Below, in pieces: positions 5,942 to 61,301 of a DNA stretch of 64,000 bases. This stretch comes from an uncultured Clostridia bacterium. GTDB taxonomy: Bacteria > Bacillota > Clostridia > Christensenellales > JAWKQI01. The position numbers were made by a program, and so were the translations under genes. The DNA lies in NCBI GenBank assembly GCA_964453645.1, contig CAYVRJ010000005.1, positions 2,808 to 66,807 of the forward strand, written 5' to 3'. Within the stretch, counting starts at the first letter, position 1. Every line of letters starts with the position of its first letter. The notes beneath the pieces were generated by a model. That model was not told the origin of the DNA. It did no database searches and saw nothing but the letters and a program-made list of their open reading frames with translations.

Positions 5942-5985
5942 ACATCGTTTCCCTAACGGGGTTTGAAAACCCCGATCTATATAAG

Positions 5986-6037
5986 CAGGGCCTTCGGTTT
6001 TTCCGGAGGCCCTGTGCTTTGTTTCTGCTTTCTTTTT
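5986..6037 (+). terminator. gap intrinsic terminator
   Basis: Hairpin CAGGGCCTTCGG-ttttt-CCGGAGGCCCTG followed by a T-rich tract. Confidence 0.65.
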
Positions 6038-6206
6038 GTGGGCGTTGCCCACACCCACCAAAGGGTATTTTTGAAAAAATACCCTTTGGAAACCCAAAAA
6101 CTTTTTAACGCAAAGCTAGCGCTTTGCTAATGCTAGGACTCAGTCCCTGCCGTGGGGGTTTAAGGGGGACGAGTAGTCCCCCTTCGGGGTTTGGGTGGAA
6201 CCCCAA
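6038..6206. repeat. mosaic hairpin-module element, locus A (M6-M4-M5-M1-M2-M3)
   Basis: GTGGGCGTTGCCCAC; AAAGGGTATTTTTGAAAAAATACCCTTTGGAAACCCAAAAAC; AACGCAAAGCTAGCGCTTTGCTAA; GGACTCAGTCCCTGCC; GGGGGACGAGTAGTCCCCC; TTGGGTGGAACCCCAA. The same modules recur at 7 other sites. Confidence 0.9.
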
Positions 6207-6275: not shown

Positions 6276-6866
6276 ATGTATGTAATAACTTGTATATATG
6301 TCTGCTTGGGAATCTTAAGCTTCACCCTAGTGCTGGATCCCATCTATAAACCCTCGGGGGACAACCGCTTTTTGCTGGGTACACTGTTCCTCATTTCACC
6401 CATCCTGTGGAGCTTACCCACCATCGAACTGGGCAACGCCATCGCCATCAACGCATTTTCGGCCTTTTCTGCCTTCGCCCTGTTCATTTCCATCATCGTG
6501 GGCGAACGCATGCTGCTCAAAACCTTGGCACTCATCGTCTTTTCGGGCTTGGCTTTTTTCACAGGTATGCTGCTGCTCACCTTTTTTAGCTTGCGCTTGC
6601 CCGCTTTTGTCATCGCTGCCCTTTTGGGTATCCTGTGCTCTATGGTCTCCCAGAGCACCGGGGAAGCATTCGTCTTTGGACTGGTTGCCGTTTGGTTTTG
6701 CGAAGTCATCGGCGGTGTTTGGGAGGGAATCGCCAACGGCACCACCATTTTAGATCTATCCAGTGCCGTGCTGAGTGCATCGGTGTGCGCACTCAGTGCC
6801 TTTTTGCTAAAAAGTATGGCGTTTATCCGCCACAACTTTAAACTCCGCTACAGCAAGGGCAGTTAG
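6276..6866 (+). CDS. hypothetical polytopic membrane protein
   Basis: 196 aa and about 6 hydrophobic segments. I recognise no motif. Its 3' end overlaps the convergent thiF-like gene by 29 nt. Confidence 0.55.
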   Translation: MYVITCIYVCLGILSFTLVLDPIYKPSGDNRFLLGTLFLISPILWSLPTIELGNAIAINAFSAFSAFALFISIIVGERMLLKTLALIVFSGLAFFTGMLLLTFFSLRLPAFVIAALLGILCSMVSQSTGEAFVFGLVAVWFCEVIGGVWEGIANGTTILDLSSAVLSASVCALSAFLLKSMAFIRHNFKLRYSKGS

Positions 6867-14116: not shown

Positions 14117-14398
14117 CAGTACGCTCCTTTTTTCTATTTCTTATGCTCACATTATACACATTCGTGTAAAAAAATACAACGGGTATTTTAATTGGGAACA
14201 AGGGTATGCCACATTTCAACACAAATAGCAAGTATAGTCCAACTCGCTATATCTTTTTGCAAAATTTTGAATCATTCCCCCTATTACCAAAATATGATTG
14301 CATAAATTTTTCACCTTTACATATTTTTAGTTATATTGTATCATATGATTGGTTTTATGTCGTGAAAATATTATTTTTAATATAAAAGGAGTTTTGAA

Positions 14399-18290: not shown

Positions 18291-19429
18291 GTAAATTATT
18301 AGGAAGAGCAAAGGTTACGGCCAAGGGGCTGAACATTGAACGGTTTTTAAACGAAAATATAACGAGCGGAATCCCCATGCAAGCGCTGAGCCGCCACGGA
18401 TACACCTGCATCGATTTTTCAGTGCCCATCCTCAAATACCGCAAACTCAAAAAAAATGCAGAGAAGTTTGATATCACTTTGAGTACAACCTTCTCTGGTG
18501 CACTTTCGTTTATATACGGTGCACGGCAGCGATTGATATTTGTGGGTGGACTTTTTGTGTCCCTATGCGTTATAATAGTGATGTCTGGGTTTATCTTGAC
18601 AGTGGAGATTGCTGGAAACGAAACCATCGACGAATACGCCTTGCGCAACAGTTTGCTCAAGTGCGGGGTGAACAACTTTGTTTCCAAGTCCATGCTGGAC
18701 ATGGGACAGATTAAAAACACGCTGATGTTGGAGTATCCCCAGATCGCCTATGTGGACTGCGAAGTGCACGGGGTGGTGTTTCGGTTGGAAGTGATCGAGG
18801 GCATTGCACCTCCGCACATTCCCGATACTGCCAAGCCTGCCGACATCATTGCCCTCAAAGATGCGTACATTCAATCGGTCACAGCCCGGTCGGGTAAGGC
18901 GGTAGTTGAGAAGGGGCAGACGGTGGTTGCAGGCCAAAAGCTGATCTCGGGCACTATGGGTGAGATCGGCCAGGAGCAGCGCTTATACTGCGCCCAGGGC
19001 AGCGTCATCGGAAACATTTGGTATTCGGGTCAAGCTTCTGCACCCATAACGGGTTATGTAAAGACGGGAAACAGTTTTTTATACAAGACGCTGTACTTGG
19101 GAAAAACGTCTCTGTCCCCACTGCCCGACGTACCCTATGAGAAGTATCGCTCGGTGAACAGCAGTGAGAAGGTGTATTTTGAAAATTTATTCCTGCCCCT
19201 TCGGGTGATCAACGAGAATTACTTCGAAGTGACCATTGCAACCCGCAGCGAGCGGGAGTTGACCGACGGGTTGTCCAAGATTGCCTTTCAGCGGGCTATG
19301 GAGAGTGTGCCCAAGTCTGCGGAGATTTTGGACGTGAGTTTTAATTACAACATTGACGAGAACGAGGTTGTTGCCGGGTGCCTCATCAAGACGGCTGAGG
19401 AGATCGGCACCATTCGATATATGCAATAG
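18287..19429 (+). CDS. yqfD: YqfD family sporulation protein
   Basis: One central TM segment. The position after yqfC matches the conserved block. I chose the TTG at 18287, with GGAGGA 8 nt upstream and overlapping the yqfC stop. The track's ATG at 18245 is the alternative. Confidence 0.7.
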   Translation: MSKLLGRAKVTAKGLNIERFLNENITSGIPMQALSRHGYTCIDFSVPILKYRKLKKNAEKFDITLSTTFSGALSFIYGARQRLIFVGGLFVSLCVIIVMSGFILTVEIAGNETIDEYALRNSLLKCGVNNFVSKSMLDMGQIKNTLMLEYPQIAYVDCEVHGVVFRLEVIEGIAPPHIPDTAKPADIIALKDAYIQSVTARSGKAVVEKGQTVVAGQKLISGTMGEIGQEQRLYCAQGSVIGNIWYSGQASAPITGYVKTGNSFLYKTLYLGKTSLSPLPDVPYEKYRSVNSSEKVYFENLFLPLRVINENYFEVTIATRSERELTDGLSKIAFQRAMESVPKSAEILDVSFNYNIDENEVVAGCLIKTAEEIGTIRYMQ

Positions 19430-19445
19430 TGGGAAGAAATTATTT

Positions 19446-19652
19446 TTGGGGTTCCACCCCAAACCCCGTTTTCGTGGGCGTTGCCCACACCCACAAGGGG
19501 GAATAAGTCCCCCTTGGCCCCTCCCGTAGGGGATTTTATAAATACATAACAAATGATATAAAATATTTATCTGACATAGCAAATGCGCAAGCAATTGCAC
19601 AAGGGGTGCAGGGACAAGTCCCTGCCGAGGGGTTTGGGGGCGAGCAGCCCCC
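19446..19652. repeat. mosaic hairpin-module element, locus B
   Basis: TTGGGGTTCCACCCCAA; GTGGGCGTTGCCCAC; GGGGGAATAAGTCCCCC; an AT-rich core; GGGGTGCAGGGACAAGTCCCTGCCGAGGGG; GGGGGCGAGCAGCCCCC. Confidence 0.9.
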
Positions 19653-19693
19653 AAGAAATGCTCCCCTAAGAAGAAACAAACTAAGAGGGACAA

Positions 19694-28308: not shown

Positions 28309-28513
28309 TTGGGGCGCTGCCCCAAACCCCGTTTAGGAGACTTTTTGTAAAAAGTCCCCTAAAAACCCCAAAAACTTTTTTAACGCAAAGCTATCACTTT
28401 GCTAAGGTGTTTATAATATATAATACGCCCTAGCAAAAGCGATAGCTTTTGTCTTGAGGGGTGCAGGGACCCAGTCCCTGCCTCGGGGGTCAAAGGGGGA
28501 CGAGTAGTCCCCC
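28309..28513. repeat. mosaic hairpin-module element, locus C
   Basis: TTGGGGCGCTGCCCCAA; an M4 variant; two M5 copies flanking an AT-rich core; GGGGTGCAGGGACCCAGTCCCTGCCTCGGGGG; GGGGGACGAGTAGTCCCCC. Confidence 0.9.
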
Positions 28514-28546
28514 TTTTCCGTGTAGCATGAGTCCACAAAATAAAAT

Positions 28547-39190: not shown

Positions 39191-39339
39191 TTGGGGTTTC
39201 ACCCCAAACCCCACCAAAGGGTATTTTTGAAAAAGTACCCTTTGGAAACCCAAAAACTTCTTGTACTTTTAAAACAATAAAAATACAAGGGGTGCAGGGA
39301 CTGAGTCCCTGCCGAGGGGCATGGGGGCGAGTAGCCCCC
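39191..39339. repeat. mosaic hairpin-module element, locus D (between rplA and the rplJ leader)
   Basis: TTGGGGTTTCACCCCAA; AAAGGGTATTTTTGAAAAAGTACCCTTTGGAAACCCAAAAAC; an AT hairpin; GGGGTGCAGGGACTGAGTCCCTGCCGAGGGG; GGGGGCGAGTAGCCCCC. Confidence 0.9.
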
Positions 39340-39359
39340 ATAAAAGAATTCACACAACT

Positions 39360-39519
39360 CAATATTGCTCGAAGTTGCCATAGACAGCAGGTGCGGTTCC
39401 GCTTAAAAGATTATGCCCGCCGAGGTGATGAACGTATAACCTATGTTTGTTATGCTCTTATCAAGGTGACTTTGAAAGAGCATTTTTATATTGAAGGTTA
39501 TAAGGAGGAGGTGAACAAT
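39360..39519 (+). promoter_or_regulatory. rplJ (L10) leader with attenuator-type terminator hairpin
   Basis: Hairpin ATGCTCTT-16 nt-AAGAGCAT (39452-39483) followed by TTTTTATATT, about 30 nt before the rplJ RBS. Firmicute rplJL operons are known to be autoregulated at a leader. Confidence 0.5.
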
Positions 39520-45855: not shown

Positions 45856-46006
45856 GTGGGTTTTGCACCACACCCACCAAAAGGAAATTTTGCAAAAATC
45901 CCCTTTGGAAACCCAAAAACTTTTTGTTGCAAAAGCTATTGCTCTTGATATAAGAGGGGTCAAGGGGGAATCATTCCCCCTTGCGGTGTTTGGGGCGGAG
46001 CCCCAA
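45856..46006. repeat. mosaic hairpin-module element, locus E
   Basis: An M6 variant; ACCCACCAAAAGGAAATTTTGCAAAAATCCCCTTTGGAAACCCAAAAAC; a degenerate M5; GGGGGAATCATTCCCCC; TTGGGGCGGAGCCCCAA. Confidence 0.85.
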
Positions 46007-50156: not shown

Positions 50157-50330
50157 GGGGGCAGCGCCTCCGGACCCCTTGTTTTGTGGACTCCGCCCAC
50201 ACCCGCAAGGGGCAATGATTCCCCCTTGACCCCCCTTATTTTTCTAGGGAAAATTATAAAAAATCCCATATAAGGGGTGCAGGGACTCAGTCCCTGCCGA
50301 GGGGGTTAAAGGGGGACGAGTAGTCCCCCC
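50157..50330. repeat. mosaic hairpin-module element, locus F
   Basis: GTGGACTCCGCCCAC; GGGGCAATGATTCCCC; an AT hairpin; GGGGTGCAGGGACTCAGTCCCTGCCGAGGGGG; GGGGGACGAGTAGTCCCCC. Confidence 0.9.
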
Positions 50331-58533: not shown

Positions 58534-58727
58534 TTGGGGCTTAATCCCCAAACCCCAGGCAGGGCGCTGCCCTGCACCCGCACGGGGGAATCATTCCCCC
58601 GTGACCCCTCTTAAAGCAAAAGCTATCGCTTTTGCTAAAGTATTATAAAAAATAAACCTTAGCAAAGCGATAGCTTTGCGTTAAAAAGTTTTTGGGTTTC
58701 CAAAGGGGATTTGGGGCGAAGCCCCAA
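58534..58727. repeat. mosaic hairpin-module element, locus G (overall inverted symmetry)
   Basis: TTGGGGCTTAATCCCCAA ... GGCAGGGCGCTGCCCTGC ... GGGGGAATCATTCCCCC ... M5 / AT core / inverted M5 ... TTGGGGCGAAGCCCCAA. Confidence 0.88.
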
Positions 58728-60912: not shown

Positions 60913-61060
60913 AGTACACCTCTTTATGTATTGTGAATTTTATAACAATCTCATTCTATATTTATATATTAAAATCGTTAAAATGTCAAGATTAATTAGC
61001 GTTTTATGAAAATATTTCACACTCTTTCGCAAAACTTTCACATAAACTTTAATCATTTAA

Positions 61061-61287
61061 GGGGACTACTCGTCCCCTTTTTTTTCAGGGGCTACTCGTC
61101 CCCTTCTTTTTTCAGGGGCTACTCGCCCCCGAACCCCTAGGCAGGGACTGAGTCCCTGCACCCCTTATATGGGGGTAATATATTAACAAATTAGCAAAGC
61201 GATAACTTTGCGTCAAAAAGTTTTTGGGGTTTCCAAAGGGGATTTTTTTCAAAAAGCCCCCTAAACGGGGTTTGGGGTGGAACCCCA
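61061..61287. repeat. mosaic hairpin-module element, locus H (inverted orientation, triplicated M2)
   Basis: GGGGACTACTCGTCCCC, GGGGCTACTCGTCCCC and GGGGCTACTCGCCCCC at 27-bp spacing. Then reverse-complement M1, M5 and M4, then TTGGGGTGGAACCCCAA. Confidence 0.9.
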
Positions 61288-61301
61288 ATAAAAATAAACC
61301 C

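Follow-up and report, generated by a model that had tools for sequence, protein, structure and literature searches.

Tagged hairpin mosaics resembling REP/BIME elements behind gene ends in an uncultured Clostridia bacterium

The stretch of DNA analysed here (the window, 64 kb, GC content ~48%) comes from an uncultured Clostridia bacterium and carries, at eight intergenic loci (A to H, Table 1), a repeat assembled from short GC-rich hairpins. The family is real, structured and extragenic, it is present in multiple copies beyond the window, and its modules are common to several phyla. Its nature as a proliferating non-autonomous repeat is well supported. Our preferred explanation, to which we give a probability of roughly 0.55, is that the loci are copies of a dispersed repeat similar to the repetitive extragenic palindromes (REPs) and bacterial interspersed mosaic elements (BIMEs) of Escherichia coli, that this repeat has proliferated in the Clostridia lineage concerned, and that it is probably moved by an enzyme of the TIRYT type. 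To our knowledge REP/BIME elements, and the REPIN elements paired with REP-associated tyrosine transposases (RAYTs), are known almost only from Proteobacteria, each family being lineage-specific. What is new here is the tag on the hairpins, the architecture of the mosaic and the unexpected distribution of its modules across phyla.

Anatomy of the repeat

An earlier note, made from the sequence alone, described the same stem-loop modules, M1 to M6, at eight intergenic sites, and pattern searches, shuffles, self-BLAST and folding bear it out. With up to three mismatches allowed, the module patterns match 3-7 times each in the window compared to 0-0.09 expected from 100 dinucleotide shuffles. M1 is found at three sites under these terms; with loop variants it amounts to five full copies, a variant with a GCAGGGC stem (locus G) and a 5′-truncated remnant (locus A). 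M2 has four exact or near sites, and the looser core GGGG.?CGAG[TC]AG.?CCCC has eight, three of these in tandem in locus H. There are four sites for M5, five for the M4 tail and five for GGGGT+M3. Self-repeat grouping of the window places the eight loci in shared repeat families, and a hairpin scan puts nearly all tagged GC-rich perfect hairpins of the 64 kb within them. When the loci were compared with the remainder of the window by sensitive self-BLAST, no ninth copy came up; positions 14254-14282, considered as a degenerate one, are merely a 14-nt half-match and were rejected. Folded as single-stranded DNA, locus A gives -48 kcal/mol compared to -26.1 ± 3.6 for shuffled sequences (z = -6.2), and locus H folded as RNA gives z = -6.0. 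Together the loci measure 1,476 nt (2.3% of the window), matching the ~1.5 kb and 2.3% given previously. All eight loci are extragenic, the overlapping open reading frames (ORFs; e.g. 19187-19693 on the minus strand, or that with a GTG start at 39292) being mechanical and not genes.

The modules are indeed present at all loci, with the qualification that the 5′ part of M1 in locus A, including the GGGGT tag, is missing or replaced (6131-6158). Some stems reach further than the ends first assigned, namely to 19654 in B, 28516 in C and 39341 in D, and over 61059-61288 in H. M1 is followed by M2 after a short gap, which we measure as 3-6 nt, and the colinear module orders claimed for A, C and D, and for H in reverse, hold. 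The division into six separate module types does not. M1, M2, M3, M6 and a GGGGGAATCATTCCCCC variant all belong to a single kind of unit, namely a 15-25 nt GC hairpin tagged on one side; the tag reads GGGGT when 5′ of the stem and, on the opposite strand, ACCCC when 3′ of it. The window holds 25 such units, 16 with exact GGGGT and 21 with NGGGT. Their outer stem pairs covary between unit types (TT..AA in nine, GC..GC in six, GT..AC in four, CA..TG in three, also AT..AT).

The units are arranged according to a grammar, [hairpin+ACCCC]n - (M4) - (M5) - AT core - (M5′) - (M4′) - [GGGGT+hairpin]m. This grammar, the inverted halves that it implies and the tight abutment to stop codons described below are all absent from the earlier note. 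The left part of each element consists of hairpins followed by ACCC(C/A/G), for example TTGGGGTTCCACCCCAA-ACCCC and GTGGGCGTTGCCCAC-ACCCAC; the right part consists of GGGGT followed by hairpins, for example GGGGT-GCAGGGACTGAGTCCCTGC and GGGGT-TTGGGGTGGAACCCCAA. Between the halves sit M4, a perfect palindrome with arms of 15-16 bp and then the tail AAACCCAAAAAC, and M5 (GCAAAGC-N4-GCTTTGC), of which some elements have a second, inverted copy. An AT-rich core of variable length also lies here and is nearly absent in A and E. Since inverted halves surround optional palindromes and the AT core, the whole element is an imperfect large palindrome. The fullest copy is locus H, on the reverse strand, and locus G is almost symmetric. 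Loci B, C, D and G have M3+ACCCC units at their left ends, to which the right terminal unit of locus A corresponds in inverted form. Folding of locus A is predicted to pair the AAACCC tail of M4 with the GGGTTT that precedes M2 (6157-6162), so that left tags can pair with right tags.

The elements are flanked by T-rich sequence on the left and A-rich sequence on the right. No target-site duplication occurs at any of the eight loci and there is no ordinary terminal inverted repeat (TIR); the terminal units differ between copies (M3, M6, M2 or others) and number from one to three. The absence of duplications and of an ordinary TIR, together with the T- and A-rich flanks, fits elements of the Y1 type.

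Table 1. Positions of the eight loci in the window, with the component parts of locus A and the neighbouring terminator.
Feature	Position	Strand	Composition and setting
Locus A	6038..6206	+	M6 tagged hairpin, M4 palindrome, M5 hairpin, M1 remnant, M2, inverted GGGGT+M3-like terminal hairpin
gap intrinsic terminator	5985..6015	+	T-rich tail extends to the left edge of locus A; outside the repeat
Locus A, left tagged unit	6037..6058	+	hairpin (T)GTGGGCGTTGCCCAC(A) and 3′ tag ACCCAC
Locus A, M4	6058..6101	+	perfect palindrome with 15-bp arms, CCAAAGGGTATTTTT-GA-AAAAATACCCTTTGG, and tail AAACCCAAAAAC
Locus A, M5 hairpin	6107..6130	+	GCAAAGC-TAGC-GCTTTGC
Locus A, M1 remnant	6131..6158	+	TGCTAGGACTCAGTCCCTGCCGTGGGG; 5′ arm and GGGGT tag lost
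Locus A, M2 hairpin	6162..6184	+	AAGGGGGAC-GAGTA-GTCCCCCTT
Locus A, right terminal unit	6186..6206	+	GGGGT tag and hairpin TTGGGTGGAACCCCAA
Locus B	19446..19654	+	between yqfD and phoH; three left tagged units, long AT-rich core, M1, GGGGT+TTGGGGGC..GCCCCCAA
Locus C	28309..28516	+	12 nt past ppdK stop; M3, M4 variant, M5, AT core, inverted M5, M1, M2
Locus D	39191..39341	+	between rplA stop (13 nt off) and L10 leader RNA (39360-39497); M3, M4, AT core, M1, M2
Locus E	45856..46006	+	whole spacer of convergent acyl-ACP thioesterase gene and yabQ; 8 and 11 nt from stops
Locus F	50157..50330	+	between two minus-strand genes; 9 nt from stop of upstream gene, 26 nt from next start codon
Locus G	58534..58727	+	whole convergent spacer, stops 12 and 11 nt off; three tagged units, M5, AT core, inverted M5, inverted partial M4, GGGAT+M3
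Locus H	61059..61288	-	full-length element reversed; M3, M4, M5, AT core, M1, three tandem M2

Insertion sites and gene ends

The host is a spore-forming member of the Clostridia, with YqfD, YabP/YabQ, PhoH, PpdK and HydG encoded in the window, and the closest named relatives of its PpdK, at 76-77% identity, belong to the Christensenellaceae and Christensenellales. In two syntenic relatives (contigs L063-L066) the order yabP-yqfD-phoH...recO-ppdK is kept and PpdK is 80-81% identical. The yqfD-phoH spacer, 264 nt here (locus B), is 5 or 18 nt in them, and an ordinary terminator follows ppdK in these organisms where the window has locus C. There are no tagged hairpins in the 16-22 kb available per contig, and the modules are absent also from a more distant relative with a 56% identical YqfD. 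Because the orthologous sites are empty in syntenic relatives, the elements are insertions.

The family is not confined to the window. Short-read (Logan) contigs of the same species (L011, L012 and L049), obtained from two runs, break off within modules at B and D, which indicates a family in multiple copies beyond the window, and modules occur in other organisms as described below. The 13,410-nt contig behind L049 runs, by arithmetic from the coordinates, exactly from locus A to locus B. Extrapolation from eight loci per 64 kb suggests a few hundred copies per genome.

The elements had been placed mostly just 3′ of genes, which is correct but understated. At nine of the ten gene 3′ ends that adjoin an element the stop codon is 8-16 nt from the element edge. 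The exception is gap, which has its own terminator first, so the element at locus A sits after a terminator. The nine junctions are at 19429, 28296, 39177, 45847, 46018, 50340, 58521, 58739 and 61302. The stop is TAG in 6/10 element-adjoining genes compared to 9/44 elsewhere in the window, although the numbers are small. At ppdK, yabQ and the PG_binding gene (locus C, the right end of E, and H) the stop codon would come from the string TAGGGG-N9-11-(T)TGGGG, which is found also at the right end of B, where no gene terminates. The C-terminus of PpdK is at the same position as in its relatives, hence ppdK has not been truncated.

Do the hairpins then act as terminators or carry promoters? Only two of ~40 hairpins, both in locus H and antisense to the neighbouring genes, are followed by at least six T within 9 nt, and we rejected a role as intrinsic (Rho-independent) terminators on this count. 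Runs of T precede the terminal hairpins and do not follow them. A conserved promoter in the AT core was likewise rejected, as no consistent -35/-10 spacing could be recognized by eye across B, C, D, F, G and H; a promoter scan of locus A gave two weak sites, both outside the element. E and G occupy entire convergent spacers, whilst B, D and F lie between co-directional genes. Locus D ends at 39341, 18 nt before the start of the L10 leader at 39360 (Rfam RF00557, 58 bits), and rplJL is either read through from rplKA across element D or has a promoter inside element D. Elements positioned 8-16 nt after stops, sometimes in operons and devoid of U-tracts, are probably transcribed hairpins rather than terminators. 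As mRNA 3′ or inter-cistronic hairpins they may affect decay or read-through, and RNA-level effects on the abutting genes are plausible.

Such effects raise an alternative explanation, that the loci are primarily host-selected cis-acting structures spread by recombination. At the level of mRNA they might be 3′ or inter-cistronic hairpins acting to block exonucleases, to tune read-through or to stall ribosomes at termination; at the level of DNA they might be sites for nucleoid proteins or gyrase, as in BIMEs. E. coli REPs stabilize upstream mRNA, and in 2015 Liang, Rudd and Deutscher reportedly found that those within ~15 nt of a stop codon reduce translation. The close abutment to stop codons speaks for such a role, and is seen in other phyla too, for example in Asticcacaulis (L005), where the TAG stop of tuf is followed directly by M1. 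A transcript from either side meets hairpin+ACCCC units first, the co-directional loci B, D and F leave no room for a promoter, and the loop GAGTA and linker CGAGGG are conserved from Clostridia to Pseudomonas plasmids. However, selection in cis leaves unexplained the presence of near-identical composites at eight unrelated loci that are empty in relatives, and hairpins without U-tracts are not intrinsic terminators. We consider it unlikely as the primary nature of the elements. A cis-acting role is compatible with a mobile origin and probably secondary to it.

Two other features of the window are recorded here. Directly 3′ of locus A a 196-aa ORF (6276-6866, plus strand) matches nothing in Pfam or NCBIfam and overlaps, over its last 29 nt, a ThiF-family gene on the opposite strand; it may not be a gene. 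At 1371-1468 and 1531-1628 there is a 98-nt direct repeat, 96% identical, that begins with the 3′ end of tRNA-Lys(CTT) and continues into downstream sequence. It looks like an integration scar at the tRNA gene and is followed by an ORF for a HicA-like toxin (about 1711-1905) and a further ORF (1921-2319). The 62-nt stretch between the two copies has GCGAAGCGAAC, a string that also precedes M1 in three loci of Clostridia metagenome-assembled genomes (MAGs), L001, L004 and L010.

Related modules in other organisms

M1, with 22 fixed bases, was found in ten species-representative genomes where by our own estimate ~0.1-1 would be expected by chance, and most of these matches have further family modules alongside. 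One is a locus from Desulfovibrionaceae (L002) with M3+ACCCC, a CAAGGGGG-hairpin+ACCCGC, GGGGT+M1 and ATGGGGC..GCCCCAT, in the same order as in the window. M1 is accompanied by a second tagged hairpin in Clostridia and Oscillospiraceae MAGs, Ktedonobacteraceae and Desulfovibrio sp., and Polymorphobacter has an inverted pair. The M1-M2 dyad recurs in plasmids of Stutzerimonas and Pseudomonas aeruginosa that resemble integrative and conjugative elements (ICEs). Linker and loop are identical to those of the window and the differences in the stems are compensatory. Stem pairs were counted per sequence, MAFFT alignments of M4 and of the dyad being out of structural register. The spread thus covers Clostridia, Desulfovibrionaceae, Ktedonobacteraceae, Alphaproteobacteria and Pseudomonas plasmids.

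The plasmid dyads are located on a megaplasmid of Stutzerimonas zhaodongensis (~105.0 kb; L052 and L054) and on P. aeruginosa plasmid CP137942 (~10.96 kb; L053). They lie in long non-coding ICE or plasmid backbone DNA, beside parA in Stutzerimonas, and the P. aeruginosa locus adds a CAAGGGGC hairpin. Such backbones are a possible vehicle for the spread of modules between phyla. The full element gave no match to plasmids and phages with blastn, and M1 none in viral contigs.

M4 occurs in 13 metagenome contigs of 51-60% GC, in six different perfectly paired variants, often adjoining tagged hairpins or the 11-nt termini GCCTCCGGCGG / CCGCCGGAGGC. A further nine marine metagenome matches to the M4 tail (L014-L016, L019, L023, L024, L041, L043 and L044) were rejected as chance matches to an unrelated conserved region, which looks non-coding, contains CCTTTGGAAACCCAAAAACCCAAAAACC and GGTTTTTGGGTTTTTGGG repeats and is shared by these contigs.

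The termini just mentioned form part of a second alternative, that the elements belong to the miniature inverted-repeat transposable elements (MITEs) and are mobilized by a DDE transposase recognizing TIRs, with the internal hairpins as passengers. In the metagenomes M4 is carried by elements of ~180-390 nt bounded by GCCTCCGGCGG...CCGCCGGAGGC, and the same terminus flanks M1 in Polymorphobacter and Desulfovibrio. The elements of the window are themselves imperfect inverted repeats, with TTGGGG..CCCCAA+ACCCC on the left and GGGGT+TTGGGG..CCCCAA on the right. Against this, the fixed TIRs and target-site duplications that define MITEs are found at none of the eight loci, the GCCTCCGGCGG terminus is absent from the window, and no transposase of any kind was recognized next to the elements. 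The variable ends and the number of units, one to three, fit unit-wise assembly and not a fixed TIR. We judge this explanation less probable than selection in cis. The bounded elements, from 51-60% GC metagenome contigs, Polymorphobacter and Desulfovibrio, contain M4 or M1 and comprise L017, L020, L022, L026, L027, L034, L039, L046 and L006-L008; internal content differs between the orthologous sites L017/L039 and L020/L034.

An Rfam search, at gathering and permissive (E ≤ 10) thresholds, gave nothing at the loci or in 18 related loci, the only matches in the window being tRNAs and the L10 leader. There is no clean match to any Rfam family, nor in plasmid or phage records. A literature search found no paper that prints the modules, and the matches to GGGGTTTGGGG are G-quadruplex or telomere oligonucleotides, not this family. 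That the loci represent small structured RNA genes, or a family of cis-regulatory RNAs transcribed from a promoter of their own within the AT-rich core, is highly improbable: strong predicted structure, compensatory stem changes and TATAAT-like strings in the cores would suit it, but Rfam has no counterpart, the cores vary in sequence and length with no promoter-like site at a conserved position, most copies lack a terminator after M2, and the gain, loss and inversion of modules is not the way in which RNA genes evolve.

Class membership and a candidate enzyme

A tagged hairpin as the unit, inverted halves, unit-wise gain and loss, the absence of duplications and extragenic spread are properties of REP, BIME and REPIN elements, and the non-autonomous REP/BIME-like repeat remains the explanation that we prefer. 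The elements are short GC-rich extragenic palindromes present in many copies (25 units in eight loci per 64 kb), and inverted units are joined by linkers (M4, M5 and the AT core) as in BIMEs. They share with E. coli REP/BIME elements the imperfect palindromes with a one-sided conserved tag, their density, the alternating or inverted units and linkers in mosaics of variable number, proximity to stop codons and the lack of target-site duplications. The tag itself is different. GT[AG]G at the foot of the stem, characteristic of REPs, is replaced by GGGGT, the sole approach to it being three TGGGT+GTGGGC units with a stem beginning GTGG, and membership of the REP class in the strict sense fails on this point. 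Also unlike the E. coli elements are the stems based on G4-5/C4-5, the additional long palindromes containing A/T (M4, M5), the AT-rich core and the Clostridia host. Classical REPs are specific to a species or genus whereas the modules described here are common to several phyla. The BIME/REP-like reading in the earlier note thus stands with respect to a dispersed extragenic mosaic of hairpins, built in the style of a BIME and inserted, but not with respect to the GT[AG]G tag or to building blocks specific to one species.

Comparison with other systems is informative. In the REPIN-RAYT systems of Pseudomonas and others (Bertels and Rainey) the mobile unit is proposed to be a single large hairpin made of two inverted REP-like halves; it is non-autonomous, of lineage-specific abundance and served in trans by a single-copy Y1 transposase, as we infer here. 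REPINs are doublets of one REP type with a short spacer, whereas here two to seven different units combine with other modules. The pneumococcal BOX element (boxA-boxB(n)-boxC) is likewise modular and intergenic, has one module in variable number (M2 in one to three copies here) and strong predicted hairpins, and effects on the expression of neighbouring genes are expected; there is no sequence similarity, however, and BOX has neither the grammar of tagged palindromes nor the symmetry of inverted halves. The ends of IS200/IS605 elements, and of the miniature derivatives of these known as palindrome-associated transposable elements (PATEs), offer a subterminal hairpin with a short guide or tag on one strand for recognition, as would be the case here, do not require inverted termini or duplications and insert strand-specifically. 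In contrast to IS200/IS605 the present elements lack tnpA and tnpB as well as defined left and right ends, and each is composed of many hairpin units.

REP, BIME and REPIN elements are cut and rejoined by RAYT Y1 transposases (PMC2817692, PMC6006769). The units here would be mobilized as single-stranded hairpins, cut out and pasted in by a tyrosine HUH (Y1) transposase provided in trans. A RAYT-like enzyme of subclass 2.1 (TIRYT) would be the likeliest one, since the repeats flanking such genes share a core with the modules. TIRYT genes encode Y1 enzymes of subclass 2.1 with a C-terminal helix-turn-helix, and their flanking inverted repeats share GGGG[AT][CG]A[CG] (PMC3733652; PMC6006769). These enzymes occur in ~15% of the strains surveyed by Quentin et al. 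and have no known REP partner (PMC6006769). The class does have a candidate enzyme family: a search for RAYT-like proteins gave 2,668 from Clostridia and Negativicutes (E ≤ 1e-15), and 'REP element-mobilizing transposase RayT' is the name of many of them. Among the top 120 matches the amino-acid composition indicates low-GC types throughout and no high-GC relative.

RAYT-like genes were recovered in Firmicutes and other phyla and their flanks read. The flanking repeat is GGGGTCAGGCCT in Sporomusa (L051), GGTCAAGGGGACGGTTCCCC in two copies in a Eubacteriales MAG (L055), GTGTCAAGGGGACGGTTCTCCTGACAC in L056, TAGGGGACGGTTCTTTTTGCTTC as a perfect inverted pair in L057, AAAAGGGGTCAGACCCCTT in Rhodospirillum rubrum (L060) and AAAGGGGACAGAT... 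in P. aeruginosa (L061). The first five lie around their genes in inverted copies. For the six Firmicutes genes inspected (Clostridia and Negativicutes) the repeats are related, but not identical, to modules of the window. Units in the window that resemble gene flanks are GGGGGTCAAAGGGGGACGAGTAGTCCCCC (C), GGGGTCAAGGGGGAATCATTCCCCC (E) and GGGGTCACGGGGG (G, reverse complement). Relatives of M4 from other organisms, such as GGGGACTTTTTGTAAAAAGTCCCC (L018), which read as an inverted pair of AAAGGGGAC-TTTTTG, also resemble them. Window modules and the flanks of Clostridia genes have in common the core GGTCAAGGGGACG / GGGG[AT][CG].., with a longer likeness to L055 and L056. The fit to GGGG[AT][CG]A[CG] is 8/8 for GGGGTCAC (G, reverse complement) and 7/8 for the GGGGTCAA units of C, E and F, although with so short a motif chance is possible. 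In the Acetoanaerobium replicon the flanking repeat is present at 33 places or more, which shows that partner repeats of subclass 2.1 genes in Clostridia can be dispersed. The RAYT-like gene of the Eubacteriales MAG (JAQUJQ010000014.1) is an immediate neighbour of a BREX defence cluster (brxA, brxB and brxC).

The likeness to TIRYT TIRs (Di Nocera 2013, PMC3733652; Quentin 2018, PMC6006769) has several aspects. The core is initiated by GGGG and conserved across phyla: genes of Clostridia, Negativicutes, Rhodospirillum and Pseudomonas have GGGGTCAG, GGGGACGG and GGGGACAG in their flanks. Among the units are small GGGGxC/GxCCCC hairpins, which occur as inverted pairs, and at least one repeat is dispersed. 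The TIRYT repeats differ in being simple inverted repeats beside the gene, no BIME-like mosaics of tagged hairpins having been described, and the link is one of motif resemblance.

Several observations weigh against a mobile REP/BIME-like repeat served by such an enzyme. The earlier note had proposed looking for a RAYT or IS200/IS605-type Y1 gene; regular expressions and phmmer revealed no Y1/HUH gene in the window or in 372 kb of related loci, using approximate queries (E. coli RayT, IS608 TnpA and a COG1943-like consensus), the last of which recovers annotated transposases in plasmids. Quentin et al. saw no REP-like sequences near subclass 2.1 genes (PMC6006769). M1 and M2 fit the TIRYT motif at 6/8 positions and the M3 units (GGGGTTTG) at 5/8, and most tags in the window match only the first six of the eight. 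The common core is short (~10-12 nt), and for a 10-mer match between two small sets our own estimate of the chance expectation is ~0.3. The same M4 and M1 modules occur elsewhere inside the GCCTCCGGCGG...CCGCCGGAGGC-bounded elements, which are more MITE-like, and the identity of 24-nt hairpins across phyla is unlike lineage-specific pairs of REP and RAYT. By motif resemblance a TIRYT-type enzyme would be the best candidate mobilizer. A more far-reaching proposal, which we offer tentatively and regard as doubtful, is that GGGGT-tagged hairpins are the genomic partner repeats of the widespread subclass 2.1 Y1 transposases, forming a cross-phylum superfamily with a conserved recognition core that in this Christensenellales-like lineage has expanded into BIME-like mosaics 8-16 nt behind stop codons.

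Three aspects of the family are distinctive. REP-like mosaics are present in an uncultured spore-forming Clostridia lineage, relatives have clean empty sites, and the hairpin modules recur, loop sequence included, in distant phyla and on Pseudomonas mobile elements. If the link to subclass 2.1 is true, this group of Y1 transposases gains a substrate and a testable activity, and the fragmentation of short-read assemblies of such genomes at the ends of genes would be accounted for as well. The fixed distance behind stop codons provides a handle on target choice, or on selective filtering, of such repeats, and the modules are a recognizable signature for intergenic annotation in MAGs of gut and digester Clostridia.

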